Of a DNA stretch of 40,131 nucleotides, positions 11,665 to 37,032 are shown piece after piece. A program made the translations under genes and the position numbers. Positions within the stretch are counted from its first letter, which is position 1. Every line of letters starts with the position of its first letter. The notes under the pieces were generated by a model that had not been told where the DNA came from, did not search any database, and saw nothing but the letters and a program-made list of their open reading frames with translations. Source of the stretch: a virus; the IMG/VR virus record IMGVR_UViG_3300045391_003787, positions 1 through 40,131 of that record; one strand, written 5' to 3'.

Positions 11665-14538
11665 ATGGCTAGAATACACCAATCAGGAGCTGAACATAAC
11701 TCAGTTGTTGATGGAATTGACGACATAATTAGTGCTGGTGCAACCATTGTCACGACCCCTGTCTTGGGTAGTCGTTATGCTTGGAAATTAACTAGTGCGT
11801 CAGGAGCTTCATCAGTAGCATCTTACGCTCGTTTCGGTCACGCCAATTCAACCGGAGCAGCGGTTTATTATAAATGGGATTTTCAAGTAGATACTACTGG
11901 AGCGTTCTGGTTGTGTCAGTTTGCTTTTGGAACAACAAAGCGTGGTGGAATTAGATTTACAGGGGGAAAGTTACAATTAGCAACAGATATTACAACGGGC
12001 GTTGGGGCAACTTCGGTATCTGTTACCACTGGAGTTTGGCACACCTGTCAGGCTAAGTATGATGCGGCAACGGGAAATGCAGAATTTTATTTAGATGGGG
12101 TTCTGGTTGATACCGGACAAAACGTAACCACCGCCGGAAATAATGTAGACAATCTTTATATTGGTCAGTTTCAGCCAGTCAATAGCAATATGTACGTTGA
12201 TAATATTATTGTCAACGATACTACTGGTGCTAATGAGACTGGGTATCCGGCAAGGGGTGAGAGATTTGTAATTCTCTACCCCAATGCCGTAATGACCGAA
12301 GCGGCTACCGTGGGTGGTGCGCCTGGAGATGTTTATTTTAGAACCTCGGCAGGTGGTGCAGGGTCCGGTACAACATCTAACTGGAATCAAGTTGAGGAAA
12401 CCGATCCTGATGGTGATACTTCTTACGTTAGGAAAAACGCTAGTGAATCTAACCGTGATTGGTATCCGGTAGAAGATATTGCCACAGTTGGGTTTCCAGC
12501 AACGACAGATGAGGTGAATGTTGTAGCGGTTGGTGGTTATGTTGGAGGGAACGGAACCACCGATAGGTTCTTTAGGTATTTATACGAAACAGCAGCCGGA
12601 GCAACCGGGCTTCAGCGGTCCGCCAGCGTCAACGCCAACGTCAACGCTTATTTCCTATATAAAATTGGCGGTGTTGCTGGTGCTGACCAACAGTTACTTT
12701 CTTATCCTTCGGGTTCCGTTGGATCAGACCTAGATACCTATCAAATTGGTTGGGAAGCTAACGACGCTAACGCCCGTCAAATAAAGGGCTCAGCTTTTTG
12801 GCTGGAAGTTTCTTATATCGCTTCGGGTGTTTCTACTTCCCCTTCAGTCTCACCATCAATCTCTAAATCACCGTCCGTCTCTCCGTCCGTATCCGTCTCC
12901 CCCTCGGTTTCGGTCAGCCCTAGTATTTCTAAATCCCCTTCGGTTTCGCCGTCGGTATCACCATCGGTATCAGTCTCTCCAAGTATCTCCGTCTCTCCAA
13001 GTGTTTCAAAATCACCGTCAATTTCACCTTCCGTAAGTCCGAGTGTCTCCGTGTCCCCCAGCGTAAGTGTTAGTCCCTCGGTTTCTAAATCCCCTTCCAT
13101 CAGTCCGAGCGTTAGCCCCTCGGTATCAGTCTCCCCCTCAGTATCAGTTAGCCCAAGCTCTAGTTTATCTCCCAGCGAATCTCCTTCCGTTTCGCCCTCG
13201 GTTTCCACCTCCCCGTCCGTTAGTGTCTCACCTAGTGGTTCTCTATCACCTAGTATCTCACCAAGCGTTAGTCCCTCAGCTTCGACAAGTCCTTCGATTA
13301 GCGTCTCGCCGTCGTCGTCTTTATCTCCCTCGATCAGTCCTTCCATCTCACCTAGTTCGTCAGAAAGTCCCTCCATCAGTCCAAGTTCTTCGATCAGCCC
13401 GTCGGTGTCCCCATCGGTATCGGTGTCTCCATCAATCAGTGTTTCACCCTCGGTTTCTGTATCTCCCAGTTCTTCTCTATCACCCTCCCTTTCTCCGAGC
13501 GTTAGCCCCTCCGTCAGTGTTTCTCCTTCTGTTTCAACCTCTCCTTCGGTTTCTACTTCCCCATCTGTTTCTGTTTCACCTTCAAGTTCAATATCGCCTA
13601 GCGTATCGCCATCTAGTAGTGCGTCTCCATCTGTTAGCCCTTCGGTTAGTACCTCGCCTAGCGTTTCCACAAGTCCTTCGATTAGTGTTAGCCCTAGCAG
13701 TTCTGAGTCACCCAGTGTCTCACCGTCTTCATCTTTATCACCGTCTGTCTCTCCGAGTGTTTCTACCAGCCCTTCAATCTCTGTATCCCCAAGTTCGTCA
13801 GAGTCTCCTTCCGTTTCGCCTTCCAGTAGTGTCTCTCCTTCCGTAAGTCCAAGCGTAAGTACTTCACCTTCCGTCTCAGTTTCTCCTAGTGTTTCAACCT
13901 CGCCTAGTAGTTCATTAAGCCCCAGCATTAGCCCCTCTGTAAGTCCCAGCTCTAGTGAATCACCATCAGTCAGTCCCTCCTCATCAACTTCGCCCAGTGT
14001 CAGCCCCAGTGTCTCCACTTCCCCATCAGTTAGTACTTCCCCATCAGTAAGTGTCTCACCGTCGTCTTCTATTAGTCCCAGTGTCAGCCCGTCGGTTTCC
14101 ACTTCACCCTCACTTAGCCCTAGTGTCAGCACTAGTCCCTCAGTCTCGGTGTCGCCGAGTAGTTCACTTAGTCCATCTACGTCGCCATCGGTCTCAGTAA
14201 GTCCATCAACATCGCCGAGCGTTTCCGTTTCACCCAGCGTCAGCGAATCCCCCTCCATCAGTCCATCTATTAGTGCTAGTCCCAGTACCTCCCCCTCGGT
14301 ATCAGTATCACCTTCGGAATCCCCAAGTCTCAGTCCCTCAGTCTCTCCGAGTATCTCTTTTAGTCCTTCAATATCCCCATCGCCCTCTGCTCCAGCCTTT
14401 ACAGCTACTTTATATGAATGGAACGGCACTATTTGGATAAAGAAAGTTATGAAGTATTACAATGGGTCAGTTTGGATTAATAAGCCCCTTTACTATTGGG
14501 ACGGGTCAGCGTGGGTTGCTGTAGATAATTTAGGCTAA
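11665..14538 (+). CDS. Large virion surface or fibre protein: N-terminal LamG/concanavalin-like domain, (Ser-X)n tract of about 520 aa, and short aromatic C-terminal repeats
   Basis: 957-aa ORF. The N-terminal roughly 385 aa has a LamG-like pattern (WHTCQAKYD..GNAEFYLDGVLV...NLYIGQF...MYVDNIIVND). Residues about 389-908 have Ser at every second position. The C-terminus has three Y-x-(W/Y)-(N/D)-G-(S/T)-x-W units. Confidence 0.8.
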   Translation: MARIHQSGAEHNSVVDGIDDIISAGATIVTTPVLGSRYAWKLTSASGASSVASYARFGHANSTGAAVYYKWDFQVDTTGAFWLCQFAFGTTKRGGIRFTGGKLQLATDITTGVGATSVSVTTGVWHTCQAKYDAATGNAEFYLDGVLVDTGQNVTTAGNNVDNLYIGQFQPVNSNMYVDNIIVNDTTGANETGYPARGERFVILYPNAVMTEAATVGGAPGDVYFRTSAGGAGSGTTSNWNQVEETDPDGDTSYVRKNASESNRDWYPVEDIATVGFPATTDEVNVVAVGGYVGGNGTTDRFFRYLYETAAGATGLQRSASVNANVNAYFLYKIGGVAGADQQLLSYPSGSVGSDLDTYQIGWEANDANARQIKGSAFWLEVSYIASGVSTSPSVSPSISKSPSVSPSVSVSPSVSVSPSISKSPSVSPSVSPSVSVSPSISVSPSVSKSPSISPSVSPSVSVSPSVSVSPSVSKSPSISPSVSPSVSVSPSVSVSPSSSLSPSESPSVSPSVSTSPSVSVSPSGSLSPSISPSVSPSASTSPSISVSPSSSLSPSISPSISPSSSESPSISPSSSISPSVSPSVSVSPSISVSPSVSVSPSSSLSPSLSPSVSPSVSVSPSVSTSPSVSTSPSVSVSPSSSISPSVSPSSSASPSVSPSVSTSPSVSTSPSISVSPSSSESPSVSPSSSLSPSVSPSVSTSPSISVSPSSSESPSVSPSSSVSPSVSPSVSTSPSVSVSPSVSTSPSSSLSPSISPSVSPSSSESPSVSPSSSTSPSVSPSVSTSPSVSTSPSVSVSPSSSISPSVSPSVSTSPSLSPSVSTSPSVSVSPSSSLSPSTSPSVSVSPSTSPSVSVSPSVSESPSISPSISASPSTSPSVSVSPSESPSLSPSVSPSISFSPSISPSPSAPAFTATLYEWNGTIWIKKVMKYYNGSVWINKPLYYWDGSAWVAVDNLG
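12831..14388 (+). repeat. Coding tract for strictly alternating Ser-X repeats (SPSVSPSVSVSPS...)
   Basis: Read directly from the translation. The DNA copies are degenerate, with all six Ser codons and all four Pro codons used within the first 100 nt. Confidence 0.95.
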
Positions 14539-14553: not shown

Positions 14554-14730
14554 ATGCATAGAACTAAAGCAGAAAGAATGGCTCATAATCGGCATGTTGT
14601 GCAATTAGGCTGGCTGGTTTACTACCGGAACAAGTTTATCTGTAATTTTTTTTATTTCTTATCAGGAGTTATAAGCCTCTATATCGGGAACCGAATAGCG
14701 GTTTTTTTCTTGACTGTATATGGCCGGTGA
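14554..14730 (+). CDS. Possible small membrane protein (58 aa)
   Basis: Hand-translated ORF MHRTKAERMAHNRH..FICNFFYFLSGVISLYIGNRIAVFFLTVYGR with a hydrophobic C-terminal half. Its ATG lies only 3 nt after the putative -10, so either the ORF or the promoter call may be wrong. Confidence 0.3.
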   Translation: MHRTKAERMAHNRHVVQLGWLVYYRNKFICNFFYFLSGVISLYIGNRIAVFFLTVYGR

Positions 14731-15001
14731 CATCTCAGGGCAAGACATATTTAATGTCATAAATGCCACTCGTTTAGAGTTGAATAATAACCTTACGAGT
14801 GCAGAAAAGGGCTTGACTTTAGCCGTTGAAAATCTAGGTAATAAGCTAGATAAACTACAAGAGGGTCGTTTGGCCGATGTAGAGAAGATGGCCTACGACA
14901 CTCATATAAGGTTCCAGCCGGTGGAAAGAATCGTTTATGGGCTGGTTGCTTTGGTTTTAGTAGCTGTATTTGGCGCAATACTTACCTTAGTGGTCAAATG
15001 A
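14720..15001 (+). CDS. Tail-anchored membrane protein, lysis-cassette component (holin- or spanin-like)
   Basis: 93 aa with a single C-terminal TM segment (IVYGLVALVLVAVFGAILTLVV), lying just upstream of the endolysin. Confidence 0.55.
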   Translation: MAGDISGQDIFNVINATRLELNNNLTSAEKGLTLAVENLGNKLDKLQEGRLADVEKMAYDTHIRFQPVERIVYGLVALVLVAVFGAILTLVVK

Positions 15002-15093
15002 AATTTCTCTCCTTTATATTTGGTATGTTACTGGGATCAGCCCTTTTTCTAATCTCTTTATTAATTTGGAGTAGAATTATATGGGGCTTTTAG
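14998..15093 (+). CDS. Small hydrophobic peptide (31 aa), lysis-cassette component
   Basis: ATGA overlap with the upstream stop. The translation is MKFLSFIFGMLLGSALFLISLLIWSRIIWGF. It overlaps the endolysin start by 13 nt. Confidence 0.4.
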   Translation: MKFLSFIFGMLLGSALFLISLLIWSRIIWGF

Positions 15094-15848
15094 ATTTTCC
15101 AATAAAGGATACTTACTCGATCAGCCAGGGGTTTGGAGAGAACTTAGTAAACTACCAGGCCCTCGGCATGAAGGGTCATAATGGGTTGGATATTGCCTGT
15201 GCGACGGGCTCGGGTCTTTATGCTTGCCAAGATGGAGAGGTCATTGGTGTTAATACGGGGCAGGCTTTGAATGATAAGACTGGCTACGGAAATTATATTC
15301 GCCAACTTACTACCATTGATCCGACTGACACTAATGTTCCTAATGCTGCCTACTACGACATTATTTATGGGCACCTCTTAACGGTGTATGTAAGACCGGG
15401 CGACAAGATTATTAAGGGGCAACTAATTGGTTTAACTGATAACACTGGAAATTCCACTGGTCCCCATTGTCATTGGGGTGTTCGTTACATGGATAACAAT
15501 AAGACTGTCCTTGATTACAACAATGGTTACTTTGGTTATGTAGACGTGAAACCCTTAATAAATCCAACGACCTTGGCTATTGTTTATCCCGTTGATAATC
15601 GCTACGGGCAAGCTCAAGACAAACTTCTGGAAGGATTTTGGGCTCTTAAAAATGAGGCTTATGCTAAACGTAAGTGTGCCGAGAACGCCGTGCCCTATAC
15701 TGATCGAATCAAGAAGGCTTTTGTATACGGGAAATGGGATAGCTTCACCAATTTAGATAAGAAGCAGTATGGGGTTTTTGATGTGGCTATGTACGAGACT
15801 TGGCTGCACCTCACTAAACCGGAATTCCTTAAGAAATTAGGGAGATGA
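15081..15848 (+). CDS. Peptidase M23 (LytM-type) endolysin
   Basis: Canonical M23 motifs HNGLD (HxxxD) and GPHCHWG (HxH), with the intervening GYGNYI block. Confidence 0.85.
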   Translation: MGLLDFPIKDTYSISQGFGENLVNYQALGMKGHNGLDIACATGSGLYACQDGEVIGVNTGQALNDKTGYGNYIRQLTTIDPTDTNVPNAAYYDIIYGHLLTVYVRPGDKIIKGQLIGLTDNTGNSTGPHCHWGVRYMDNNKTVLDYNNGYFGYVDVKPLINPTTLAIVYPVDNRYGQAQDKLLEGFWALKNEAYAKRKCAENAVPYTDRIKKAFVYGKWDSFTNLDKKQYGVFDVAMYETWLHLTKPEFLKKLGR

Positions 15849-15994
15849 CTCTCGTCAGGTGCCAGTTTTGTTTAAAGATTATTCAACGGTCCAAGCCGCC
15901 AGTGGGAATTGTGCGGTGCTTTTCTTGCAAGATGGCTGCTAATCGCAAACGGGCCTTGGATTTTATTAAACGGAAAAAGGAGGTGATTAAGTGA
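15845..15994 (+). CDS. Small Cys4 zinc-ribbon protein (49 aa)
   Basis: ATGA overlap with the endolysin stop. The translation is MTLVRCQFC...VRCFSC followed by a basic tail. Its stop overlaps the GTG start of the next gene. Confidence 0.5.
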   Translation: MTLVRCQFCLKIIQRSKPPVGIVRCFSCKMAANRKRALDFIKRKKEVIK

Positions 15995-16176
15995 ATACGG
16001 ATTTTTTGAAATCAAATAGATTCTGGGCTCTAGTTATTCTGGTCCTGGGTGGTTATCTTCAGGCTCAGGGTTTAATAGCGAGCGATTTTGGCTTGGCAAT
16101 TCAGACTTTGGCTCTCGGATTTGTGACCGTTGGGACAGTCGATAAATTTGCTAAGAGTTTAAGCGGTAAAAAGTAG
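15991..16176 (+). CDS. Small two-TM membrane protein, holin-like
   Basis: GTG start preceded by AAAGGAGGTGA. 61 aa with two hydrophobic segments and a basic C-terminus (SGKK). It is the last gene of the plus-strand module. Confidence 0.55.
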   Translation: MNTDFLKSNRFWALVILVLGGYLQAQGLIASDFGLAIQTLALGFVTVGTVDKFAKSLSGKK

Positions 16177-16302
16177 TACGCTAAGATAAACGACTTTAGT
16201 CTTCCCGGCGTACCGAGATTGGCAATTGGTTTGAGCAGTAAGGCCAATAACATCTGTTAGCTTTAGCTGCGACCAAAACAGAGGTCAGCGAGACACAAAA
16301 AT

Positions 16303-16323
16303 AGCCCTTTTAGGGCTTTTTTG
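16303..16323. terminator. Possible bidirectional rho-independent terminator
   Basis: Stem AGCCC (16303-07) / GGGCT (16313-17), with an A-run upstream and a T-run downstream. It lies at the convergence of the plus and minus modules. Confidence 0.5.
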
Positions 16324-16334
16324 TTTACATGGCA

Positions 16335-16363
16335 AGCCGACCTTTTCAGGGGTCGGCTTTTTT
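16335..16363 (+). terminator. Rho-independent terminator
   Basis: 8-bp stem AGCCGACC / GGTCGGCT with an 8-nt loop, followed by TTTTTT. Confidence 0.75.
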
Positions 16364-16440
16364 GCCTATTGGCTGCAAGCGACAGCTTGCTGTTCGTCCG
16401 AAGACGATTTTACTTACTCGGTGACTGCTAGGTGTGGCTC

Positions 16441-16626
16441 CTAAGCAGTCTTTTTTTCCTTCAGGCCCACAAGGTCGACTAGATTTACTTCAGCACGGAA
16501 GTAATCTTCTTCGTCCGGAGAAACGGTCTTCAGGACTTGTCCGTGACCGTTTTGACACGTCCACCAGCCGGTTTTCGTGTCGTAGAAGGCCGGACAAGGG
16601 CAACTACAACAAGTTACCTTGGCCAT
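16441..16626 (-). CDS. Small Cys-rich protein (61 aa), last gene of the island
   Basis: MAKVTCCSCPCPAFYDTKTGWWTCQNGHG... starts at an internal Met of the 112-aa track ORF. It overlaps the HNH gene end by 23 nt. Confidence 0.4.
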   Translation of the reverse strand: MAKVTCCSCPCPAFYDTKTGWWTCQNGHGQVLKTVSPDEEDYFRAEVNLVDLVGLKEKKTA

Positions 16627-16828
16627 GACTGCCTCCGATCCGCTCCTCGAGGCGTTCCAGCACTTCAATCGCTTCCTTGACCGTTCGGTTCCCGAACAGT
16701 GTGTGGAAAGCGACATGGTGCTTGGCCGAGAGATGGATGATGTTGTTGGGGAGGAAAGAGCCTCCTCTGCTCTTGGCAAGATTGTGATGCCGGGTCAGTT
16801 TCTTGCTTCGCCTGGATCGTTTGCCCAT
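16604..16828 (-). CDS. Small HNH-family nuclease-like protein
   Basis: Motif RHHNLAKSRGGSFLPNNIIHLSAKHHVAFHTLFGN (HH..SRGG...N....HH..H). I place the start at MGKRSRR because it forms a TGATG overlap with the upstream stop. Confidence 0.6.
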   Translation of the reverse strand: MGKRSRRSKKLTRHHNLAKSRGGSFLPNNIIHLSAKHHVAFHTLFGNRTVKEAIEVLERLEERIGGSHGQGNLL

Positions 16829-17034
16829 CAGACAGGGTCTCCGTTGTCCTTGCACTCCAGCACGATGGCGAAGTAGAAGTTGGTGTCATCCTTCTTCCAC
16901 TGGACCCCGTGAACGGTGAAGTCCGTGCAGTCCTTCATGGTGGTGATCGGCACCTCCGTCAGGACAGCCGCCGGGTGAGACGTTGGAGTGGGCACCGCTA
17001 CCAGAGCAGCGGCAATGGCGATTGATTTCATCAT
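16828..17034 (-). CDS. Small secreted protein with signal peptide (68 aa)
   Basis: MMKSIAIAAALVAVPTPTS... has a hydrophobic N-terminal leader. GGAGGTAAGTC lies directly upstream of the ATG. Confidence 0.55.
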   Translation of the reverse strand: MMKSIAIAAALVAVPTPTSHPAAVLTEVPITTMKDCTDFTVHGVQWKKDDTNFYFAIVLECKDNGDPV

Positions 17035-17037
17035 GAC

Positions 17038-17112
17038 TTACCTCCAGCCGATCAATTCGCAGAAAAAGTTGAGCCACTTGGCGATTGCCAGTTCCACTTC
17101 CCAGCGGTTCAT
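17038..17112 (-). CDS. Possible 24-aa peptide
   Basis: MNRWEVELAIAKWLNFFCELIGWR. It has an ATGA overlap with the upstream stop, and its 3' end carries the SD of the next gene. Confidence 0.3.
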   Translation of the reverse strand: MNRWEVELAIAKWLNFFCELIGWR

Positions 17113-17258
17113 TTGTCTGTTTCCTCGACTTGCTTTGAAGACATCGAGATGACGTAGAGCATCACGACACCGATCAAGAACAAGATCGAGACTGTTTCCG
17201 CCGGAAAGAAGTACAGGCCACCGCCGACGAATACGACACCAGCGATTCTCTTTTTCAT
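17109..17258 (-). CDS. Small membrane protein (49 aa)
   Basis: MKKRIAGVVFVGGGLYFFPAETVSILFLIGVVMLYVI..., hand-translated as 50 codons, with a TGATG overlap with the upstream gene. Confidence 0.5.
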   Translation of the reverse strand: MKKRIAGVVFVGGGLYFFPAETVSILFLIGVVMLYVISMSSKQVEETDK

Positions 17259-17431
17259 CAGCAACTCCCGACAGTATCCCAGTCGGTCACTGTCATAGCG
17301 ACGATCACGCCGCTAGTATGCCCATCATCATCTTCCGTGTATTCGATTGTACCGAGCGCATGGAAGGTGAGAGCGGGGTTGAAGTCTGGATGGTATGTAA
17401 ACTCCACATTCTCGACCTGCCATGTTTTCAC
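17258..17431 (-). CDS. Small acidic soluble protein (57 aa)
   Basis: GTG start overlapping the upstream TGA (GTGA). The translation is VKTWQVENVEFTYHPDFNPALTFHALGTIEYTEDDDGHTSG... Confidence 0.45.
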   Translation of the reverse strand: MKTWQVENVEFTYHPDFNPALTFHALGTIEYTEDDDGHTSGVIVAMTVTDWDTVGSC

Positions 17432-17565
17432 GGCCGTTCTCCAAACAGCTTACCCAAGATCTGACAGGCTATAAACCCGAAGATCGCCAGGAAAACTGAT
17501 AAGAAGAACAACAGTATGAATGGAGAGGCGAGAATGAGATGAGTGTAACACTTAAGTTTGTGCAT
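17428..17565 (-). CDS. Small membrane protein (45 aa), first gene of the island
   Basis: GAGGAGG lies 8 nt upstream of the ATG. The translation is MHKLKCYTHLILASPFILLFFLSVFLAIFGFIACQILGKLF... Confidence 0.5.
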   Translation of the reverse strand: MHKLKCYTHLILASPFILLFFLSVFLAIFGFIACQILGKLFGERP

Positions 17566-17592
17566 CTCCCTAACCTCCTCATATTAATTATA

Positions 17593-17979
17593 CTACAGGG
17601 CCAGGTACTTTTCTTTATAAAGGTCAATCCTTTTCCGCAAATCTAAGGCAGAATATTTAACCAGCCGGTACTTTTCCTTGTTTAGAGTCTCTAATATTCG
17701 AGCACCGTATTGTTGTTTTAATTTAATAGAATATTCATCCATGTTTCCTTTTTTAAAAACATTACATCCTACGCATTGAACATGGACATTGCGCTCATCC
17801 CATCTAAGTGATAACCAATTACGAGGGACGTAATGACCTGCCTGCATTTCCTTCCAATTGGCTCGCTTCCCACAGGTATAACAAGTACAAATCAGATCCT
17901 TGGAATTCTTGAGTCGGATGTACTCCGAAAAGATCTTATCTAGTTCTCGTTTAAGTTGGGCGTAGGTTTTCTTTTTCAT
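17593..17979 (-). CDS. ninG: NinG-like recombination protein
   Basis: The pattern LDKIFSEYIRL...CYTCGK...GHYVPR...RWDERNVHVQCVGCN matches my recollection of the lambda NinG family. I place the start at ATG 17979; the track opens at TTG 17985. Confidence 0.6.
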   Translation of the reverse strand: MKKKTYAQLKRELDKIFSEYIRLKNSKDLICTCYTCGKRANWKEMQAGHYVPRNWLSLRWDERNVHVQCVGCNVFKKGNMDEYSIKLKQQYGARILETLNKEKYRLVKYSALDLRKRIDLYKEKYLAL

Positions 17980-18149
17980 TGGCAATGAGAACAGAGTCCT
18001 TTTATATTAGCAAAAATCATCACATGACAAACACAACTGCAAATAGAGGGGATGGGGATTTCAAAAGTGAAAGTCTGTTCTTCAACCATGGGTATTTCTA
18101 CGCCACAGTCTTCGCAGTGGACCTTCTCGTTGCATTTATCGCACAGCAT
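17976..18149 (-). CDS. Cys-rich zinc-finger miniprotein (57 aa)
   Basis: Hand-translated as MLCDKCNEKVHCEDCGVEIP...CSCVCH...LCSHCQ, with an ATGA overlap with the ninG start. Confidence 0.5.
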   Translation of the reverse strand: MLCDKCNEKVHCEDCGVEIPMVEEQTFTFEIPIPSICSCVCHVMIFANIKGLCSHCQ

Positions 18150-18408: not shown

Positions 18409-18644
18409 ACGTCTTTTATCTTTCTTATTTTAATAAGCCAATGACGAGGTATGACGGTGATATCTCCTTGTTCTTGATCGTCAGTGATATCAGAGACTAC
18501 GATAACACAGTCTTTATCCTTATAAATCTTTATACCTAGGGTCTTTCTTTTAGAGAGGTGCCTTTTGTAAGGTGGTTTTAAAAACTTAGACAACTCTATA
18601 TTGGAGTGTCCGGTAGCGTCTAACCATGAGACTTCGTAAATCAT
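18405..18644 (-). CDS. Hypothetical protein (79 aa)
   Basis: ORF with 4-nt overlaps on both sides. Confidence 0.6.
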   Translation of the reverse strand: MIYEVSWLDATGHSNIELSKFLKPPYKRHLSKRKTLGIKIYKDKDCVIVVSDITDDQEQGDITVIPRHWLIKIRKIKDV

Positions 18645-19528
18645 ATCGTAGCGTTGATTTTGACGCTAGCATATCCGTGCCAGTTTATATTGGGCTTTGC
18701 GTTAATAGTTGGACTACCCAGGGCCACTGGGACCATCGCCCCTTTTTCAACATATCCCCCTTGAAATCTACCGTCTCGTTTTGAATTTTGCATATAGCCT
18801 TTGAGATAAGACCCCGTAGAGACTAGTGTTATTTCTCTGTCCCTAAGAAATGGTTCTTTACCATGTTCTCCAAATACGGCTTCTACTCTGTTTAATTTTT
18901 TACTCGCTAGTGTATGCGTGTGGGCCATAAGCATCAGGTCGGCGTTAAATGAAGGGCTTAAGTTTATTAATTTACGGATTGGGTCAGAGGCGCTTGAGCC
19001 ATGGTGGCACCAGATTATAAAAGATGGGGTTTTGTGTTTACCTGTATTTTCAAATTCCACCTGAATCATGGCACATTCCCCAAGAAAAGGGGCTTTTAAA
19101 AAGGTGCAAAGTCTAGTGTCGGAAGTTCCTCCAGTTGAGAACTCCCAATAATGATGACCCTGTAGGAGCCCCAACCAGCGTCCACGAGTCGGTTCGAGTA
19201 TCTTTTGGATGAAAGCTAAATGGTCCTCAATTTTAGCCTCCAGAGCGTCATTAAACGAGTCATACTTAACCATAGCCTTATAGTTCTCTCGGTTAGAAGG
19301 ACTGGCTACATCTAAATAATCCCCCATGCCTATATAGTAAACATCGGGGGACTTACTGGTCTCTTTTATTAACTTGTCTAGATCTTCCCAGGCACTTCTG
19401 TTCGTTCCATCGTATTGTATGTCGCCTATCGGTATAATCGTTATTCCACGTTTAGGAAGATGTCTACGCCGGACAGTTTTCTGTGGTCTAAATTCGTCTT
19501 CCAAGTAAGGAAACGATTCTAATTGCAT
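18641..19528 (-). CDS. Calcineurin-like metallophosphoesterase
   Basis: Ordered motifs IPIGDIQYDG, GMGDYLDV, LLQGHHYWEF, WCHHGS and LMAHTHT match the metallophosphatase signature. Confidence 0.75.
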   Translation of the reverse strand: MQLESFPYLEDEFRPQKTVRRRHLPKRGITIIPIGDIQYDGTNRSAWEDLDKLIKETSKSPDVYYIGMGDYLDVASPSNRENYKAMVKYDSFNDALEAKIEDHLAFIQKILEPTRGRWLGLLQGHHYWEFSTGGTSDTRLCTFLKAPFLGECAMIQVEFENTGKHKTPSFIIWCHHGSSASDPIRKLINLSPSFNADLMLMAHTHTLASKKLNRVEAVFGEHGKEPFLRDREITLVSTGSYLKGYMQNSKRDGRFQGGYVEKGAMVPVALGSPTINAKPNINWHGYASVKINATI

Positions 19529-19563: not shown

Positions 19564-19848
19564 TTAAAGCAAGTAAGCATTTGGCCTAGCTGGCGACAGC
19601 CCCAAAGACGGTTGTGAGTCTAGTATTAAAGGTTGCTCTGGAATGCGAGCAGCCAAGCCAAACACTTCAAATTTACCTTCGCCATGACTGATTAACTTCC
19701 CTGCTTTGCGAAGTTCTCTACATCGTTTAGAGGTCTCAGATCCAAACATCTGACCAAGGTACAGTTTACCCCCCATTTTAGCTGGGGTTATAGACCCGTT
19801 AGCTTCAACGTAGTGGATGATAAGTTCTTTTTGGGTTAGGTCTTTCAT
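19564..19848 (-). CDS. Hypothetical protein (94 aa), possibly a winged-helix DNA-binding protein
   Basis: ORF in the operon. The helix-turn-helix-like character is only a weak impression. Confidence 0.55.
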   Translation of the reverse strand: MKDLTQKELIIHYVEANGSITPAKMGGKLYLGQMFGSETSKRCRELRKAGKLISHGEGKFEVFGLAARIPEQPLILDSQPSLGLSPARPNAYLL

Positions 19849-20204
19849 AATCCTTTAATATTAGTTAAAAGATTATCAAGGTCTATCAAACACCCATCAA
19901 CATCAGCTTCGTGTCCATTAATGGCACTCCCCTCCCTTTCGTGTTTAATAGCAAGTTTTAATCCAAAAAGAATAAAATCTAAATCGGCTTTAATCGGTTC
20001 CAAAGTCTCTGTTCTGACTTGTTGTTCTAGGAGGGAAATGGCTTGAGTTAGGAAAATAACTTTTATAGTTTGGGCAAATGCTCTTATGTTATTTTTAATA
20101 ACTTCTTTTTCTTCTTGGGTTATATCAAAAGTCCAAACAAGCGTAGCTATGTAAGTTTCGGTCTTATCATCAAATTCTTTTAATATTTCTTCAGTGGTTG
20201 TCAT
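19845..20204 (-). CDS. Hypothetical protein (119 aa)
   Basis: ORF with a 4-nt overlap downstream. Confidence 0.6.
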   Translation of the reverse strand: MTTTEEILKEFDDKTETYIATLVWTFDITQEEKEVIKNNIRAFAQTIKVIFLTQAISLLEQQVRTETLEPIKADLDFILFGLKLAIKHEREGSAINGHEADVDGCLIDLDNLLTNIKGL

Positions 20205-20217
20205 ATCAGTCTTGCTT

Positions 20218-20391
20218 TTAGTCCTGTTTATACAGTGTTTGCCGAAAGACCCTACCTAATTCACCCCGTTTATTTTTTGCGGTGCCTGGCACCATTTTAG
20301 TAATCCACTTCTTAAAAAATCTAAATTCCTTATCTGACATTTCTTCGTGTTCGTAGATAGTAAGACGTGCTCGTATTTGTGGTTTTTTCAT
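20218..20391 (-). CDS. Small basic hypothetical protein (57 aa)
   Basis: Hand-translated codon by codon as MKKPQIRARLTIYEHEEMSDKEFRFFKKW.... It fills an otherwise empty gap. Confidence 0.4.
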   Translation of the reverse strand: MKKPQIRARLTIYEHEEMSDKEFRFFKKWITKMVPGTAKNKRGELGRVFRQTLYKQD

Positions 20392-20440
20392 ATAAACTCT
20401 GATTAAGTTAAATTAAATTCTTTCAAAATGTTTTCTTTGG

Positions 20441-20992
20441 TCATATTAGTTCAATGTCATTATTTACTTCATTACCCCATACGTCCCAACCGTCTCTTTT
20501 CAATCTCGCATAAAGTTCTAGCTTGTCCGTGTTAGGATAAAGACTTTCAATTATTTGGTATGCAATTTCTGGCTTTTGGCTGTGTTTCTTAACTTGTTCT
20601 GTAAATACTGAGTGGATTTTCCCTCTTTGCTCTAAAGCTACAGGCAATAATTTATTACGGTACATATATAACAAGTATTCGTGTCCAAATCTTATTGTAA
20701 AAGCGGCTGGTATGCCAGTAACTTTATTCCAAACCATTCTAGCGTGGAGTTTATAACCCAATTTTTTTGCTATTTGCTCTGCTTCAAATAAGTATTTATC
20801 AATAGTCCACAAAAATAAAACGCAGTTTTCTTGTGCTAACAATGTTGCAGAATATAAGTGTTCTTCAATTTCTTCTAGGGATATAGTTTGGTAGTCTAAA
20901 TCAGTGCCAGAGCTATTTGGTCGTACATTCTTTTTACCACCTTTTCTTATTTGCCACGGTGGGTCAGCATAAATTACCTGGTACTTTCTCAT
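20441..20992 (-). CDS. MT-A70 family N6-adenine DNA methyltransferase
   Basis: Catalytic motif YADPPWQ near the N-terminus, with size and layout typical of phage MT-A70 enzymes. Confidence 0.8.
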   Translation of the reverse strand: MRKYQVIYADPPWQIRKGGKKNVRPNSSGTDLDYQTISLEEIEEHLYSATLLAQENCVLFLWTIDKYLFEAEQIAKKLGYKLHARMVWNKVTGIPAAFTIRFGHEYLLYMYRNKLLPVALEQRGKIHSVFTEQVKKHSQKPEIAYQIIESLYPNTDKLELYARLKRDGWDVWGNEVNNDIELI

Positions 20993-21291
20993 ATTTCCTC
21001 TTTAATAGCTGAGATAAGGTCAGCGAGTGCTTTGTTGTAGCCGCTGTCTTGGGCTGTTTCCATTGGATTGTGGCGATAAATAGTTTTCTTGAGTTTGCTA
21101 ATGATTTCTAATATCCTCTCCCTCTCTTCTTTAACCCCTTTCTCATAAGCAGATTGATGGACTTGGGAGATGAACTCAATAACATCTTCAACCCACAACC
21201 CTCTTAATGGTCGCCATTCATCACCGTGGTCGTTAACAAACTTATGTATAAACTCTTTTTCCCAATCAGGGATTTCTTTAGTGTTATTCAT
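20989..21291 (-). CDS. Hypothetical protein (100 aa)
   Basis: ORF with a 4-nt overlap with the methyltransferase gene. Confidence 0.6.
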   Translation of the reverse strand: MNNTKEIPDWEKEFIHKFVNDHGDEWRPLRGLWVEDVIEFISQVHQSAYEKGVKEERERILEIISKLKKTIYRHNPMETAQDSGYNKALADLISAIKEEI

Positions 21292-21296
21292 ATTAT

Positions 21297-21518
21297 TTAT
21301 CTTCTAAACCAATCTAGGATACTTCTTCCAGGCACAGTTTTTAAGTTGCGATGGTTATAAAATTGCTTTTCTTCTTTTATTCTTTCTTCACAATTACATT
21401 CGATTTTAGTCAAATGATTTCTTTGTTCGCATTCTTTATCGTGGTAACCAGTAGTTTTTGTCATATTATCTAGGTTGATAGCTCTCGCACGATTTATTAG
21501 GTAAGACTTGTTTAGCAA
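21297..21518 (-). CDS. Hypothetical protein (73 aa)
   Basis: ORF in the operon. Confidence 0.5.
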   Translation of the reverse strand: MLNKSYLINRARAINLDNMTKTTGYHDKECEQRNHLTKIECNCEERIKEEKQFYNHRNLKTVPGRSILDWFRR

Positions 21519-21577
21519 ACACTTTAGCCCAGCAACTACGGCATCTCTTACTTCCTTTGTAGATTGGTTTGTGGCAA

Positions 21578-22009
21578 TCAGAGCAATTCTGGGTTTTCAT
21601 AGATGTTACCGATTACATCAAGTTCTGCTCCTTCATCATTGAGTTTATCAAATGACCAAAATCCTTTGCTAAATATACAATGGTAACTTCCGTCAGATTC
21701 TACTCCAAAACAACCATCCTTAAATATAACTGGAAGTAGGTGGGCAAATTCTTCTATTGGACCTTGGCCCTCATCTGTTATTGGTACTATTTCTTGGTCC
21801 ATCAGCGTGATGATATCCCCCTCATAAATCTCTTTACCATTCTTATCTTTGAGGCCAGTGTATTGCATCGGTTCGCTAATAACTCCGTGCGGTTTATCTC
21901 TTTCTGGTTGGAGCACTGCCCAACCATCTTTAATCTCAATAAGTTCAAGTGTTGGTTGAAGCATTCTTTTATTAGTCTTGTCGTAAACTCTAAATTTAAT
22001 TTCACGCAT
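21578..22009 (-). CDS. YopX-family protein
   Basis: MREIKFRVYDK...YTGLKDKNGKEIYEGDII...VIGNIYENPELL is the characteristic YopX pattern. Confidence 0.75.
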   Translation of the reverse strand: MREIKFRVYDKTNKRMLQPTLELIEIKDGWAVLQPERDKPHGVISEPMQYTGLKDKNGKEIYEGDIITLMDQEIVPITDEGQGPIEEFAHLLPVIFKDGCFGVESDGSYHCIFSKGFWSFDKLNDEGAELDVIGNIYENPELL

Positions 22010-33636: not shown

Positions 33637-36600
33637 ATGCGAATGGCCAAGAAGAACATTGGCCCATTCCTCGCTTTCAACAGGGTTTGGTTCGTAATCA
33701 ACCAAAAGCGATTACTCTGGTTACTTAACTCCAAGTTAACCCGGCGATGGTTCCGCCGGGTACTTTGCATTGATGAAACTTTAGACATTGAGGAGATCTT
33801 CCCCAATTCTTATAAGGTTCATTTGATTGGAAACGTCTATAAGCAAGATTTCAGAACTCACGCAAAATATGGGAAGCGTATTTATCTTGCCTTTAAACCT
33901 TTATGGTGGGTAATTCACTACTGGGATGAACTTTTTGCTGATAGATATGCTCCTGAATGGAGTTATGGATTTACTACTTTAACAGTATTTCCTGACCCCA
34001 ACGCAGAGACTACCTCTGTCGATGGTTCTACGACAAGAAGTACTGCCGAGGCATGGGCTACCAAACGAGCAGCGGCCGCATCTAACACCGCCCAAGATAG
34101 TGCTACTACTGCTTACTTTGCACGCCTCACTTCCAATGGAACCCCTCAGTGGACAAACATGGATAGGGGATTCTTTTTGTTTGATACTTCTGCATTAGGT
34201 GCAACAGCCATTGTCGCTAGTGCAACATTTTCTATTTCCGGCGATAGTGGTGGTACTACCTTAGATCAATATAGTCAGGATTATTGTTTAGTTAGTTCTT
34301 CTCCGGCATCTAATACAGTTATTTCTACTGGGGATTACGACCAAGTGGGATCAACAGATTTTATAACCCGCGTTTCTTGTGGGTCTTGGAATGATACGGC
34401 GTATAATGATCACGCTTTAAATTCAAGTGGTATCGCAGCGATTTCGTTGACGGGTGTAACTAAGTTTGGAACTCGTCTTTCTGGAGATTTAGATAATGTA
34501 GAACCTAGTATTGGCGCTGGTGGGTTGAACTCTCGTGTAAGGTGTATTTTTGCAGACAACGCAGGAACAGCTAGTGATCCTAAGTTGGTAATTACTTATA
34601 CGTTGTCGTCTACCTCTCCTTCCGTCTCACCGTCTGTTAGCGTAAGTCCGTCTGTTTCCGTATCCCCATCCGTTTCAGTTTCTCCTAGCTCGTCTCTATC
34701 GCCCTCGGTTTCTCCGAGTGTGTCACCCAGTGTCTCAGTCTCCCCCTCGATAAGTGTGTCACCCAGTGTCAGTACCAGTCCATCAATTTCCGTTTCACCT
34801 AGCAGTTCTTTATCGCCGTCTGTTTCCCCTAGTAGCTCGGCTAGCCCGTCGGTGTCGCCTTCCGTTAGTGTATCGCCTAGCGTATCAAAGTCACCATCCA
34901 TATCACCCTCCATTTCCCCATCAGTGTCAGTAAGTCCATCAATTTCCGTTAGCCCCTCGGTATCAGTTTCACCTAGTATCTCTGTTTCACCTTCAGTTTC
35001 CGTTTCACCATCTAGTAGTCTATCTCCCTCCATCAGCCCGTCTGTTTCCCCAAGTGCAAGTGTATCTCCATCTGTCTCGGTATCCCCGTCAAGTTCTTTA
35101 TCACCATCTATCTCACCATCGGTATCACCCAGCGTTTCAGTATCACCTTCTGCTTCTGTTAGTCCTAGTAGCTCTTTAAGTCCCTCAATCAGTCCAAGTA
35201 TCTCACCATCAGTAAGTGTTAGCCCGTCTGTTTCCGTTTCACCATCTTCATCACTCTCACCATCTGTAAGCCCCTCGGTATCCCCTTCCGTCAGTGTTTC
35301 ACCGAGTGTCAGTGTTTCACCTTCTTCCTCTCTATCGCCATCCATCAGTCCGTCTGTCTCTCCTTCGGTATCTACTAGCCCATCAATTTCCGTTAGCCCC
35401 TCATCTTCTTTATCTCCATCAATATCACCTAGCGTTAGTCCGAGCGTTTCTGTGTCTCCGAGTGTTAGTGTTAGTCCATCCTCGAGTTTATCGCCAAGTG
35501 TTTCACCATCGGTCTCTCCCTCAGTATCAACTTCTCCAAGTGTTAGCGTCTCACCGTCGTCTTCACTTTCTCCATCAATAAGTCCGTCGGTGTCACCGTC
35601 GGTATCGGTCAGTCCATCAGTCTCAGTTAGCCCCTCTTCAAGTTTATCACCGAGCATATCGCCCTCCATCAGTCCATCCGTTTCGGTATCTCCATCGACC
35701 TCGGTGAGTCCATCTGTAAGTGTATCTCCATCGGTTTCTACTTCTCCATCAGTCTCAGTCTCCCCCAGCGTTTCCGTATCACCATCCTCTTCATTATCTC
35801 CCTCGATCTCACCGTCGGTTTCCCCGAGTGCTAGTACATCACCTAGTGCTTCTGTTTCTCCTTCTGAAAGTGTCTCTCCCAGCTCCTCGCTTAGTCCGAG
35901 TATTTCGCCCTCTGTATCACCCTCGGTTAGTACCTCACCTTCTGTTTCAGTCTCACCTTCTGTTAGTGTATCGCCAAGTTCTAGTTTGTCCCCTAGCATT
36001 TCTCCTAGTGTAAGCCCTTCTGTTTCTACAAGCCCAAGCGTCTCCGTCAGCCCTTCGGTAAGCACTTCCCCCTCCTCATCATTATCACCGTCCATAAGTC
36101 CATCAGTATCGCCCTCAGTTTCAATCAGCCCATCGGTATCACCCTCTGTCTCCGCTAGTCCGTCAGTAAGTCCTTCATCGTCACTCTCACCTTCCATTTC
36201 GCCATCAGTAAGCCCCAGTGTTAGTGTTTCACCTAGTGCTTCAGTATCTCCCAGCGTCTCAACTTCGCCTTCCGTTAGTACCTCACCATCCGTGTCGACT
36301 AGTCCTTCCGTTTCACCTTCCGTTAGTGTTTCTCCGTCAGTTTCACCGTCAGTCAGTAAATCTCCCAGTATTAGTCCATCAGTGTCTCCTTCGGTGTCGG
36401 TATCACCTAGTGTTTCCGTCTCTCCCTCTGTTAGCGTCAGTCCATCCGTTAGTCCGTCGGCCTCTCGGAGTCCCTCAGCTTCGCCTTCTTTCTCACCATC
36501 CAAGAGTCCAAGTATCTCCCCGTCCTTCTCGCCCTCTAGGAGTCCGTCGGTCTCCGTTTCTCCATCCGTCTCTACTAGTCCGACACCCTCATCTTCGGTT

Positions 36601-37032
36601 TCGCCTAGCATCAGTGTCTCCCCATCTATTTCGGTATCACCTAGTTCCTCTCCTTCACCCTCTCCAGGTGGGCATAATTGGACAAATCAAGACCAAAACC
36701 ACAGTTCGTGGACCAATCAAGATAAGAATTCAAGTAGTTGGACTAATCAGGATAAAGTAACAAGTACCTGGGAGAATCAGAGTAAAGTAACCAGTAACTG
36801 GGAGAATCAAGATAAGAATTCGAGTGCCTGGAGTAACCAAGTAAAGGTTGTTAGTACTTGGGAGAATCAGGATAAAATGGCAAGTTCGTGGACTAATCAG
36901 GATAAAAACTCGTCTAATTGGTCAAATCAGAGTAAAATTACTAGTAGTTGGTCTAATCAAAGCAAGAATCCAAGTACCTGGGAGAATCAAGATAAGGACC
37001 CTAGCACTTGGGATAACCAGGATAAAAGTTAA
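33637..37032 (+). CDS. Very large virion surface or fibre protein: N-terminal globular domain of about 320 aa, (Ser-X)n tract of about 690 aa, then about 12 Trp-containing decapeptide repeats
   Basis: 1131-aa ORF. The repeat organisation was read directly from the translation. Confidence 0.8.
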   Translation: MRMAKKNIGPFLAFNRVWFVINQKRLLWLLNSKLTRRWFRRVLCIDETLDIEEIFPNSYKVHLIGNVYKQDFRTHAKYGKRIYLAFKPLWWVIHYWDELFADRYAPEWSYGFTTLTVFPDPNAETTSVDGSTTRSTAEAWATKRAAAASNTAQDSATTAYFARLTSNGTPQWTNMDRGFFLFDTSALGATAIVASATFSISGDSGGTTLDQYSQDYCLVSSSPASNTVISTGDYDQVGSTDFITRVSCGSWNDTAYNDHALNSSGIAAISLTGVTKFGTRLSGDLDNVEPSIGAGGLNSRVRCIFADNAGTASDPKLVITYTLSSTSPSVSPSVSVSPSVSVSPSVSVSPSSSLSPSVSPSVSPSVSVSPSISVSPSVSTSPSISVSPSSSLSPSVSPSSSASPSVSPSVSVSPSVSKSPSISPSISPSVSVSPSISVSPSVSVSPSISVSPSVSVSPSSSLSPSISPSVSPSASVSPSVSVSPSSSLSPSISPSVSPSVSVSPSASVSPSSSLSPSISPSISPSVSVSPSVSVSPSSSLSPSVSPSVSPSVSVSPSVSVSPSSSLSPSISPSVSPSVSTSPSISVSPSSSLSPSISPSVSPSVSVSPSVSVSPSSSLSPSVSPSVSPSVSTSPSVSVSPSSSLSPSISPSVSPSVSVSPSVSVSPSSSLSPSISPSISPSVSVSPSTSVSPSVSVSPSVSTSPSVSVSPSVSVSPSSSLSPSISPSVSPSASTSPSASVSPSESVSPSSSLSPSISPSVSPSVSTSPSVSVSPSVSVSPSSSLSPSISPSVSPSVSTSPSVSVSPSVSTSPSSSLSPSISPSVSPSVSISPSVSPSVSASPSVSPSSSLSPSISPSVSPSVSVSPSASVSPSVSTSPSVSTSPSVSTSPSVSPSVSVSPSVSPSVSKSPSISPSVSPSVSVSPSVSVSPSVSVSPSVSPSASRSPSASPSFSPSKSPSISPSFSPSRSPSVSVSPSVSTSPTPSSSVSPSISVSPSISVSPSSSPSPSPGGHNWTNQDQNHSSWTNQDKNSSSWTNQDKVTSTWENQSKVTSNWENQDKNSSAWSNQVKVVSTWENQDKMASSWTNQDKNSSNWSNQSKITSSWSNQSKNPSTWENQDKDPSTWDNQDKS
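34606..36666 (+). repeat. Coding tract for alternating Ser-X repeats with a 26-residue super-repeat (SPSSSLSPS[IV]SPS[VI]SPSVS[VT]SPS[VIA]SV)
   Basis: The central part shows at least eight consecutive 26-aa units, each beginning SPSSSL. There is a single Thr-for-Ser exception near the end. Confidence 0.95.
36679..37029 (+). repeat. About 11.7 tandem 30-bp (10-aa) repeats, W-[TESD]-N-Q-[DSV]-K-x-x-S-x
   Basis: WTNQDQNHSS WTNQDKNSSS WTNQDKVTST WENQSKVTSN WENQDKNSSA WSNQVKVVST WENQDKMASS WTNQDKNSSN WSNQSKITSS WSNQSKNPST WENQDKDPST WDNQDKS. Confidence 0.95.

Follow-up and report, generated by a model that had tools for sequence, protein, structure and literature searches.

The nin region of phage lambda places NinG/Rap and the NinI phosphoesterase among small, non-essential genes between the replication genes and the late and lysis genes. 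Other small early phage proteins are found at the membrane or in the periplasm, as is the case for T4 Imm, T4 Sp/Spackle and T5 Llp, which serve in superinfection exclusion or act on the envelope. Small accessory genes with a deviant base composition have been defined as morons (Juhala/Hendrix definition, PMC4378225). Among stand-alone HNH proteins, HlpB was reported to bind DNA, no cleavage being detected, and is genetically linked to AddAB end resection (PMC3765158). Here we analyze a block of seven minus-strand mini-genes, p1 to p7, located at positions 16441-17565 of IMG/VR virus record IMGVR_UViG_3300045391_003787; this whole stretch of 40,131 nucleotides (nt) is referred to as the window. 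We find the block to be a cassette of small accessory genes that includes an HNH gene and is mobile in part, and to be neither a recent foreign insert nor a single seven-gene system. It is probably the promoter-distal, accessory end of the early operon, made up of seven coupled mini-genes that form an envelope sub-module and an HNH/zinc (Zn)-ribbon sub-module, with a maintained excess of G+C (GC).

The block resembles the lambda nin region in that small, packed and often overlapping accessory genes follow the early genes, in the company of NinG and a metallophosphoesterase, and end beside the lysis genes. Unlike nin, it is convergent with the lysis genes and none of p1-p7 is homologous to a nin gene, while membrane or secreted miniproteins are not a feature of the lambda region. 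By analogy, the block would be placed, and would work, like a nin-type accessory tail of the early operon. It was found to be the distal end of an operon of recombination and DNA-metabolism genes, with NinG among the genes upstream and the M23 peptidase and holin-like genes converging on it, which confirms the location at the convergence of early and late modules given in the first-pass annotation.

All seven genes are read from the minus strand. p1 (17565..17428) encodes a membrane peptide of 45 amino acids (aa), p2 (17431..17258) an acidic 57-aa protein with a GTG start, p3 (17258..17109) a 49-aa membrane protein and p4 (17112..17038) a Trp-rich amphipathic micropeptide of 24 aa. These are followed by p5 (17034..16828), which encodes the 68-aa precursor of a predicted secreted miniprotein, p6 (16828..16604), which encodes a stand-alone minimal HNH protein of 74 aa, and p7 (16626..16441), which encodes a Cys-rich, Zn-ribbon-like protein of 61 aa. 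The stop codon of p1 overlaps the GTG start of p2 in GTGA, the p2 stop overlaps the p3 ATG in TGATG, the p3 stop overlaps the p4 ATG in ATGA, and the p5 stop overlaps the p6 ATG in TGATG. p6 and p7 overlap by 23 nt, p7 starting within the 3' end of p6. The chain had been read from the letters by the first-pass annotation, and its coordinates, overlaps, ribosome-binding site, TATAAT and terminators were all recovered as described.

Related loci were recovered in three assemblies. L015 (SRR21686423) was found through a p6 homologue, whereas L179 (ERZ27247789, a 30.7-kb contig) and L182 (SRR14194029) were found through p5 homologues in an exhaustive HMMER search. L179 is syntenic with the window and carries, in order, Metallophos, genes of 79 aa and 90 aa, NinG, p1-p6, a p7 paralogue (p7par), the terminator and the converging holin. 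L015 has p1, p3, p5, p6, p7par and p7, and is without p2 and p4. L182 has p2, p3, p4 and p5 only, without p6, p7 or p7par; the p2-p5 segment is the sole part common to L182 and the window (~70% nucleotide identity), and both flanks of L182 are unrelated. The coupling of the genes is also seen in the relatives, with GTGA at the p1/p2 junction in L179 and at the p5/p6 junction in L015. The p6/p7par junction of the relatives is an ordinary 8-nt ATGGCTAA overlap, and a frameshift fusion of p6 and p7 was rejected on these grounds.

Each of the seven open reading frames (ORFs) has a homologue in at least one of L015, L179 and L182, with proportions of nonsynonymous differences (pN) of 0.09-0.47 against proportions of synonymous differences (pS) of 0.38-0.83. 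Since the homologues show pN well below pS, all seven minus-strand ORFs are real genes. None of the plus strand ORFs of the island is conserved, in contrast to the minus-strand frames with their pN below pS and third-position composition signal; genes on the other strand were therefore rejected. Public gene callers applied to independent contigs called five of the seven genes, on the minus strand, and missed p1 and p4 in L001 (see below). Micro-ORFs read by hand down to 24 aa thus all turned out to be conserved coding genes, including two that automatic callers did not report. A 161-aa ORF called in L015 (P0031, 1556-2041) was judged to be a miscall, as it runs in the wrong frame across p1, p3 and p5 and ends in the p5 frame.

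Further searches added little to the synteny. When NinG or M23 was used to search viral and metagenome contigs, only distant phages were recovered (at most 49% identity), uninformative for synteny; these contigs were the sequence pool in which p6-like genes turned up. An indexed protein search with p7 returned only itself, and a search with p2 in viral contigs gave one weak match that is probably spurious. At the NinG position, L015 (847-1507) has three genes instead, a 60-aa Cys-rich protein, a DUF2061 membrane protein and a 97-aa ORF. The 97-aa ORF looks VRR-NUC-like by eye only, without a check against a profile library; if it is a VRR-NUC protein, one recombination nuclease would have been exchanged for another at this position in L015.

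Two other assemblies cross the edges of the island. L001 (2502 bp), assembled by Logan from run SRR8549365, matches positions 15609-18110 of the window at 100% identity and spans both composition junctions, and the JGI contig L002, which may share the window's own source sample, covers 15576-17266. As independent assemblies cross both junctions, a chimera is very unlikely. The chimeric assembly that the first-pass annotation had asked to be excluded was rejected on the evidence of L001 and L002, and the same arrangement is also found in L015 and L179.

The block is preceded by a Shine-Dalgarno sequence, GAGGAGG (17580..17574, minus strand), 8 nt before the p1 ATG and kept in L015 and L179, and by GTATAATTA (17585..17593, minus strand), a -10-like element (TATAAT at 17592..17587) located directly after the NinG stop codon. 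The order GTATAATTA, 4-6 nt, GAGGAGG, 7-8 nt and ATG is kept without change across the window, L015 and L179 despite a different upstream gene, and in L015 the DNA similarity to the window restarts exactly at GTATAATTA. An independent promoter at GTATAATTA is plausible from this conservation. Downstream of p7 lie a bidirectional terminator hairpin (16303-16317), with an A-run before and a T-run after it, and a second terminator hairpin (16334-16359) with a T-run on the plus strand. The terminator hairpin is kept with compensatory changes in L015 and L179.

Between the terminators and the end of the holin-like gene (16178-16295) lie two non-coding blocks that do not vary among the window, L015 and L179, while the flanking coding DNA is ~70-76% identical. 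The invariant sequences are TGTCTCGCTGACCTCTG and TGCCAATCTCGGTACGCCG(A/G)G.AGACTA.AGTCGTTTA.CTTAGC, the second of which holds a CUCGG-UACG-CCGAG hairpin. The invariant blocks at 16178-16295 could be a small RNA, a regulatory 3' untranslated region, or a cos/pac or origin element. An Rfam search of 15.8-18.2 kb gave nothing near gathering scores.

The GC content of 16441-17565 is 52.1% compared to 43.4% for the window. This is in agreement with the GC-rich island described previously, whose proposed edges at ~16380 and ~17570 were correct within ~100 nt. In steps of 200 nt, GC is 48-59% from ~16300 to ~17500 and 35-44% on either side, with the rise near 16300-16400 and the fall near 17450-17550. 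The most GC-rich 1.1-kb segment of the genome is 16351-17475 (52.9%; z=2.3), and the value of the island is reached by 0.8% of such segments. In the formal composition check, a deviation in GC and in GC at third codon positions (GC3) was found, while the tetranucleotide deviation of the island is modest (z=1.4) and is exceeded by the blocks at 13.2-14.3 kb and 35.5-36.6 kb.

The island is the sole compositional anomaly of the genome that is driven by third codon positions. GC3 of p1-p6 is 0.57-0.78, compared to at most 0.54 for all other genes of the genome. The frequency of C over T in NNY codons, C/(C+T), is 0.67 in the island and 0.40 in the rest of the genome; for G/(A+G) in NNR codons the values are 0.54 and 0.38, and for G+C at four-fold sites 0.64 and 0.37. 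The GC content of the island is nearly matched by blocks at ~12.5-14.5 kb and 34.5-36.6 kb, which have GC at second codon positions (GC2) of 0.64-0.65 and GC3 of 0.36-0.38. Because it is driven by GC2 with ordinary GC3, the GC content of these two blocks reflects amino-acid composition. They sit within ORFs of 957 aa and 1131 aa and have a strong pyrimidine skew; fibre-like repeats might perhaps account for the biased amino-acid composition, and the long antisense ORFs at 12813..14429 and 34596..36611 are probably artefacts of it. Translational selection is an unlikely cause of the high GC3 in the island, since G is favored over A and all four-fold sites are shifted too, and since the capsid, portal and terminase genes have a GC3 of at most 0.53.

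The synonymous divergence of the island between the window, L015 and L179 is saturated (pS ~0.6-0.8), like that of the flanking genes, and despite this saturation GC3 is 0.6-0.8 in every copy of the island genes. Among codons for the same amino acid in which the third base had changed, the GC fraction was 0.55 in the island and 0.46 in the flanks (p=0.004), and the GC/AT differences between lineages were symmetric (82 vs. 73). Because the synonymous sites of the island show no decay toward the composition of the phage, a recent import is disfavored. The p2-p5 segment also stays GC-rich in L182. From these comparisons, the GC excess appears to be a long-maintained synonymous-site property of the block and not the footprint of a fresh transfer.

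The p6 family offers a wider comparison. In 38 non-redundant phage loci, the mini-HNH gene was found to lie 5.4 GC points and 12 GC3 points above its own phage, compared to -1.5 GC and -1.2 GC3 points for the other small ORFs of those loci (p ~1e-12). In 24 of the 38 loci no other ORF reaches the GC3 of the mini-HNH gene, and with the lineage of the window excluded this gene is in the top 10% for GC3 in 24/36 (p=4e-16). The mean GC excess across the family peaks within ~150 bp on either side of the mini-HNH gene. Across the 38 loci, mini-HNH GC rises and falls with that of the phage in which the gene resides (r=0.81, slope 1.2), and because the offset scales with each genome, a single fixed GC-rich donor does not explain the pattern. 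The pattern is better accounted for by a process that acts locally, be it biased repair at a nuclease locus prone to recombination or synonymous-site selection. Two unrelated phages of 41-42% GC (L032, 7200-8000, and L132, 5001-5492) have patches of their own, with 52-59% GC, centred on a mini-HNH gene; the patch of L032 also covers two Zn-ribbon miniproteins, and its block converges on M23/holin as in the window.

It could be proposed from these patterns that mini-HNH genes and their neighbors sit at nuclease-driven recombination hot spots, where GC-biased repair or conversion, or synonymous selection, holds GC3 10-30 points above the genome. We regard this general explanation as quite unlikely. 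In the lineage of the window the GC peak is on p4 and p5 and not on p6, and it persists in L182, which has no p6; both observations speak against a purely HNH-centred cause.

The block consists of two sub-modules, p1-p5 and p6-p7, with different distributions, and the earlier description of one seven-gene system was accordingly abandoned. The p2-p5 part behaves as a mobile module, because it is present in the otherwise unrelated L182. p1 has one long hydrophobic segment at about residues 6-42, as judged by hydropathy, and its homologues are 66% identical in L015 (pN 0.23, pS 0.77) and 55% identical in L179. p2 has a net charge of -9 and is predicted to be soluble; it is the most conserved of p1-p5, with 82-84% identity in L179 and L182 (pN ~0.1, pS ~0.55). 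p3 starts with MKKR, followed by hydrophobic segments with a conserved GxxLY motif and a polar tail, and its homologues in L015, L179 and L182 are 30-50% identical with pN below pS. The core of p4, W-E-[VI]-ELAIAKWL-x-FF, is kept in three phages (61% identity in L179, 87% in L182; pN 0.12-0.25 vs. pS 0.38-0.46).

p5 is the most GC-rich gene of the block (58% GC, GC3 0.78). At the N terminus of its product is a signal-like segment, and the mature part, ~45-50 aa long, contains two invariant Cys (MKDC...LEC). Three true relatives were found among 1.84 billion representative proteins, and the relatives P0032 and P0033 have canonical signal peptides. A match of 2485 aa (P0034) was judged spurious, being a Cys-rich repeat. 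The AlphaFold2 model of p5 was moderate, with a predicted local distance difference test score (pLDDT) of 72, and has a short helix and a beta-hairpin; a fold search with this model gave no meaningful match. No match to Pfam, PHROGs, NCBIfam or PADLOC was found for any of p1-p5, and a PDB sequence search with p2 returned nothing meaningful. Hydropathy and the signal peptides of homologues agree with the earlier proposal that p1, p3 and p5 are membrane or secreted proteins. The most economical reading of these sequence features is that p1-p5 would be directed at the envelope early in infection; as a secondary reading, p1-p5 may represent a new five-part envelope-acting miniprotein module. p5 is similar to Spackle in being a small signal-peptide protein, an analogy that is functional only. 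The block proteins have no similarity in sequence or fold to T4 Imm, Spackle or T5 Llp, and unlike Llp p5 has no lipobox.

The 74-aa product of p6 had been called HNH-like from its motif, and profile, motif and predicted fold all bear this out. Profile matches were to NCBIfam HlpB (E=1.4e-4) and IscB HNH (E=0.014). A profile of the p6 family matched the HNH cores of IscB, Cas8f-HNH, a group II intron maturase, McrA and colicin E7 in PDB, with IscB as the best match (E=0.0025). The AlphaFold2 model, made from a 25-sequence alignment, has a pLDDT of 85 with a core above 95 and the order beta, beta, alpha, alpha; two strands (residues 11-15 and 30-34) and the helix after them (35-45) form a beta-beta-alpha-metal core. 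The informative PDB fold matches were HNH nucleases, namely McrA, pyocin S2, ColE9/E7, Gme HNH and Cas9 HNH, with E-values of 0.26-2 that are weak because the domain is very small; on pyocin S2 the core has a root mean square deviation of 0.8 A over 35 aa (prob 0.97). A search of BFVD with p6 returned uncultured marine virus proteins first (50% identity, E=6.5e-6) and then many HNHc proteins. The model thus indicates that p6 is an HNH-fold protein.

Among 25 members of the p6 family H14, H38 and F45 are invariant and H15, R21, G23, N29 and N47 nearly invariant, while H42 is changed to N in one sub-branch; HNN is a known variant of the HNH motif. The conserved residues align with the catalytic motif of IscB and Cas8f-HNH. 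p6 has a basic N-terminal tail and no DNA-recognition domain of its own, and is 76-87% identical to its counterparts in L015 and L179. Like HlpB and the Geobacter Gme HNH (PDB 4h9d), it is a stand-alone protein of ~70-100 aa with a beta-beta-alpha core, an HH motif, a structural Asn and a helix His. Unlike Gme HNH, it has no CxxC zinc site, and it differs from both in a family-specific HTLFGN-x-T-x-x-E motif and C-terminal helix, in being phage-borne, and in having a separate Zn-ribbon gene adjacent. p6 falls outside HlpB, the packaging HNH group and every characterized homing-endonuclease class, and its family is best described as an undescribed phage-borne sub-family of stand-alone mini-HNH proteins.

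The family comprises 29 protein clusters and was found in 42 viral contigs, without p1-p5. The family pattern found no relative in one genome each of 185,579 bacterial and archaeal species; as this was one degenerate pattern, cellular absence is not proven. The sampled flanks of the family mostly contain helicase, exonuclease and DnaD-like genes. In L032 and L133 the mini-HNH gene is the last gene of the early operon and converges on M23/holin as in the window. A phrog_7339-like exonuclease is present in 9/38 family loci, often directly beside the mini-HNH gene, and the tendency of the family to adjoin recombination exonucleases is reminiscent of the link of HlpB to AddAB. The phrog_7339 'DNA repair exonuclease' adjoins or is near the mini-HNH gene in L145, L149, L174, L134-L136 and L056, and the two genes may form a recombination or end-processing module.

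p7 has the Zn-ribbon-like pattern CxxC ... TGWWTCxxGH and is 76% identical in L015 (pN 0.16, pS 0.69); the paralogue p7par is found in L015 and L179. A p7-type gene accompanies p6 in 3/3 p6-bearing relatives, and both are missing from L182. p7 matched nothing in the family libraries Pfam, PHROGs and NCBIfam, and a PDB sequence search with it gave nothing meaningful. In L136 an HNH gene overlaps the next ORF, which is Cys-rich, encodes 75 aa and has a TGEWRC motif like that of p7. P0023, a 163-aa protein from a 1370-bp Logan contig, is a natural fusion of an N-terminal Cys-rich Zn-ribbon to a C-terminal mini-HNH of the p6 family, a Rosetta-stone type of hint that the Zn-ribbon and the mini-HNH work together.

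Taken as the accessory tail of the early operon, the block may function as follows. The leftward early operon would run to a terminator that it has in common with the converging lysis genes, and a single strong ribosome-binding site would serve the seven mini-genes, whose translation would be tightly coupled along the chain, with extra transcription possibly provided by the conserved -10-only promoter. By analogy with T4 Imm and Spackle, p1-p5 would act at the cell envelope early, either in superinfection exclusion or in control of the envelope or of lysis timing. p6 may bind or nick DNA, with the putative Zn-ribbon protein p7 supplying DNA contact, and the pair could work alongside the recombination nucleases or act as a minimal selfish nuclease.

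Several observations weigh against this interpretation. A consensus promoter scan at GTATAATTA gave no acceptable -35 and no promoter. p1-p5 are near-orphans without homology evidence for function, and the localisation of p1, p3 and p5 was predicted from hydropathy and inspection of homologues. The match of p6 to HlpB (NF058586) scores 22.2 bits against a curated cutoff of 130, so that the two are related and p6 is not a member, and no Pfam HNH (PF01844) match was obtained at E<0.1; in the p6 family, 2/29 clusters have a precomputed PF01844 match. Because no curated profile threshold is reached, HNH membership of p6 rests on fold and motif. The association of the family with phrog_7339 in loci of at least 6 kb (8/31 vs. 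2/60, p=0.002) was measured against controls chosen by an M23 gene, which is a different selection. An association of HNH genes with Cys-rich neighbors, seen in a crude first test (26% vs. 7.5%), was lost with a cleaner gene set; under the stricter control it was 9/38 vs. 40/233 (p=0.36) and not significant. The p7-like partners in distant phages have only a generic zinc-ribbon pattern in common.

Other readings of the block were weighed against these data. The first-pass annotation favored a horizontally acquired moron-like cassette, and in its strict form this would be a recent foreign moron from a GC-richer donor, an autonomous promoter-to-terminator unit for exclusion or host modulation. 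A deviant composition is part of the published moron definition (PMC4378225), and the GC and GC3 anomaly, the conserved -10-like element and terminator at either end, the GC-rich p2-p5 segment in the unrelated context of L182, and the gain and loss of genes in relatives (p2 and p4 absent from L015, p7par varying) all fit. Like morons, the block also has a possible promoter of its own and a junction site, and the presence of p2, p4 and p7par varies. Unlike morons, it is a seven-gene chain kept in place across saturated relatives, with no -35 and a maintained composition, in a phage without detected lysogeny genes. The site and gene order are the same in L015 and L179, the divergence is as saturated as in the flanks and GC3 is undecayed, which speaks against the recent foreign island of the earlier description. 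The GC of the HNH genes follows the resident phage (slope ~1.2, r=0.81) and not one donor value, the scan of bacterial and archaeal species found no relative of p6, and no empty site was found in the relatives, in which only p2, p4 and p7/p7par behave as insertions or deletions (L015, L179). What stands of the moron-like description is thus the deviant composition, the bracketing by a -10-like element and a terminator, and the mobile p2-p5; recent acquisition and an empty site do not. We therefore consider a recent foreign moron unlikely. A doubtful reading of p6 and p7 is that the two make up a free-standing homing endonuclease of minimal size, like the T4 Mob type but with HNH and zinc finger split over two proteins, which would cut genomes without it; repeated break repair and GC-biased conversion around it would then cause the mosaicism and the local rise in GC3. 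An HNH combined with a zinc finger is known in the Mob class, nuclease genes mark boundaries of phage exchange (PMC10448857), and p6 and p7 share with the T4 Mob class and ICP1 IPA-HNH the HNH fold and zinc module, the mosaic region and the apparent restriction to phages. The predicted HNH fold, the absence of p6 from L182, the variable neighboring genes and the family-wide GC3 peak within ~150 bp of the HNH gene also suit a homing gene. Unlike the T4 Mob class and IPA-HNH, the nuclease and the Zn module are encoded apart, by two very small genes of ~135 aa combined, below known homing endonucleases; p6 family members of 65-100 aa are likewise far below those characterized, p6 lacks a DNA-recognition domain, and there is no sign of homing or of a target site at p6-p7. 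p6 is well conserved and syntenic in three relatives and not sporadic (it is present in 3/4 p5-bearing contigs and missing from L182, whose flanks differ throughout), the GC peak of the lineage is on p4/p5 and persists without p6, and GC-biased conversion is not established in phages.

The position of the block next to the lysis genes, with which it converges within 270 bp, raises the question whether p1-p5 are accessory lysis proteins of the M23/holin cassette, acting as antiholin, spanin-like or lysis-timing factors. They include membrane and secreted miniproteins, no recognizable spanin pair was seen in the plus strand cassette, and in loci selected by M23 the mini-HNH block is repeatedly less than 1 kb from M23/holin, an adjacency that is partly a selection artefact because those loci were chosen by M23. 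Against this, p1-p5 are on the early strand, coupled to DNA-metabolism genes, with a terminator between them and the lysis operon, and the block of L182 is not beside a recognizable lysis cassette. The signal peptides of p5 and its three homologues end in AxG/E; p5 is not an o-spanin, because there is no lipobox Cys at the cleavage site, and p1 and p3 are too short for the periplasmic domain of an i-spanin. A lysis role is therefore decidedly improbable. A packaging-associated HNH of the HK97 gp74 type that aids terminase cleavage is another candidate for p6, which is a small stand-alone phage HNH; the terminase large subunit (TerL) gene lies 2.3-2.5 kb downstream of a family member in L154 and L156. 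These were the only two with TerL within ~2.5 kb among 20 sampled family flanks, most of which contain replication or recombination genes, and p6 itself lies ~9 kb from TerS/TerL, on the opposite strand and inside the early operon, which makes a packaging role very improbable. Scarcely credible is a toxin-immunity or abortive/defence module, formed by p6/p7 or the whole cassette and based on a colicin-like HNH DNase. The p6 core does superpose on the DNase cores of pyocin S2 and colicin E9/E7 (~0.8 A over 33-35 residues), but that core is common to all HNH enzymes, there is no immunity-protein-like partner, HlpB, by profile the nearest stand-alone relative that has been characterized, was reported to bind DNA with no cleavage detected (PMC3765158), and PADLOC gave no match at E<=0.1 for any of p1-p7, so that the toxin/immunity function suggested by the first-pass annotation was not upheld. 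We thus retain the accessory end of the early operon, with its two sub-modules, as the preferred interpretation.

The genome surrounding the block has an exact 69-bp terminal direct repeat (1-69 identical to 40063-40131). Because of this repeat, the window is a circularly closed assembly of ~40.06 kb (~40,062 bp), and it is probably a complete phage genome. Neither near nor distant DNA similarity to the window was found among GenBank phages (50,697 records), a GenBank phage search with the protein of a 485-aa ORF (440-1897) gave no match, and a tRNA scan of the window found none. No integrase or repressor was detected in the genome, and a temperate lifestyle is therefore not evident.

The early operon runs leftward on the minus strand from ~24 kb down to 16.4 kb and includes YopX, an MT-A70 methylase, a metallophosphoesterase/exonuclease (18641-19528, minus strand; a weak Metallophos match, also phrog_7339) and the NinG/Rap-family recombination endonuclease (17593..17985, minus strand; Pfam NinG 2.3e-19, phrog_5034 2.5e-28), which is directly upstream of the p1 block. 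The early region at 19800-24500 is strongly AT-rich (33-39% GC), and GC3 of the MT-A70 methylase and its neighbors is as low as 0.23-0.30; the two extremes of GC in the genome, low and high, thus both fall within the early operon. TerS/TerL lie together at 25.7-27.3 kb, with the terminase large subunit at 26037-27260 on the strand opposite to p6, followed by a portal or adaptor-like gene (27263-29110), and the structural genes on the plus strand wrap through the start of the window and end at 14538. The lysis group (14720-16176, plus strand) includes the M23 peptidase (15081-15848; Pfam Peptidase_M23 3.7e-17) and a 61-aa holin-like membrane protein with two segments by hydropathy (15991-16176), both on the plus strand. 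Between them, on the same strand, is the gene of a 49-aa basic Cys protein (15845-15994) with a net charge of +12 and a CxxC...CxxC pattern, which overlaps both the M23 and the holin-like genes and has a GC3 of 0.54, the top value outside the island. The pairing of M23 with a small membrane protein was seen again in L018, L032, L056 and L133.

For the biology of these phages, the block indicates that a GC island need not mean recent foreign DNA; the anomaly described here is one of third codon positions, survives saturation and recurs around mini-HNH genes. The putative envelope miniproteins, above all the acidic p2 and the predicted secreted p5, are reasonable candidates for new superinfection-exclusion or anti-defence functions. 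The GC3 peak is an inexpensive, testable hint of either biased gene conversion or selection acting on nuclease loci of phages. If mini-HNH genes are indeed located at hot spots of nuclease-driven recombination, such a local peak of GC3 would mark minimal nuclease genes in general and would not be a sign of recent horizontal transfer.

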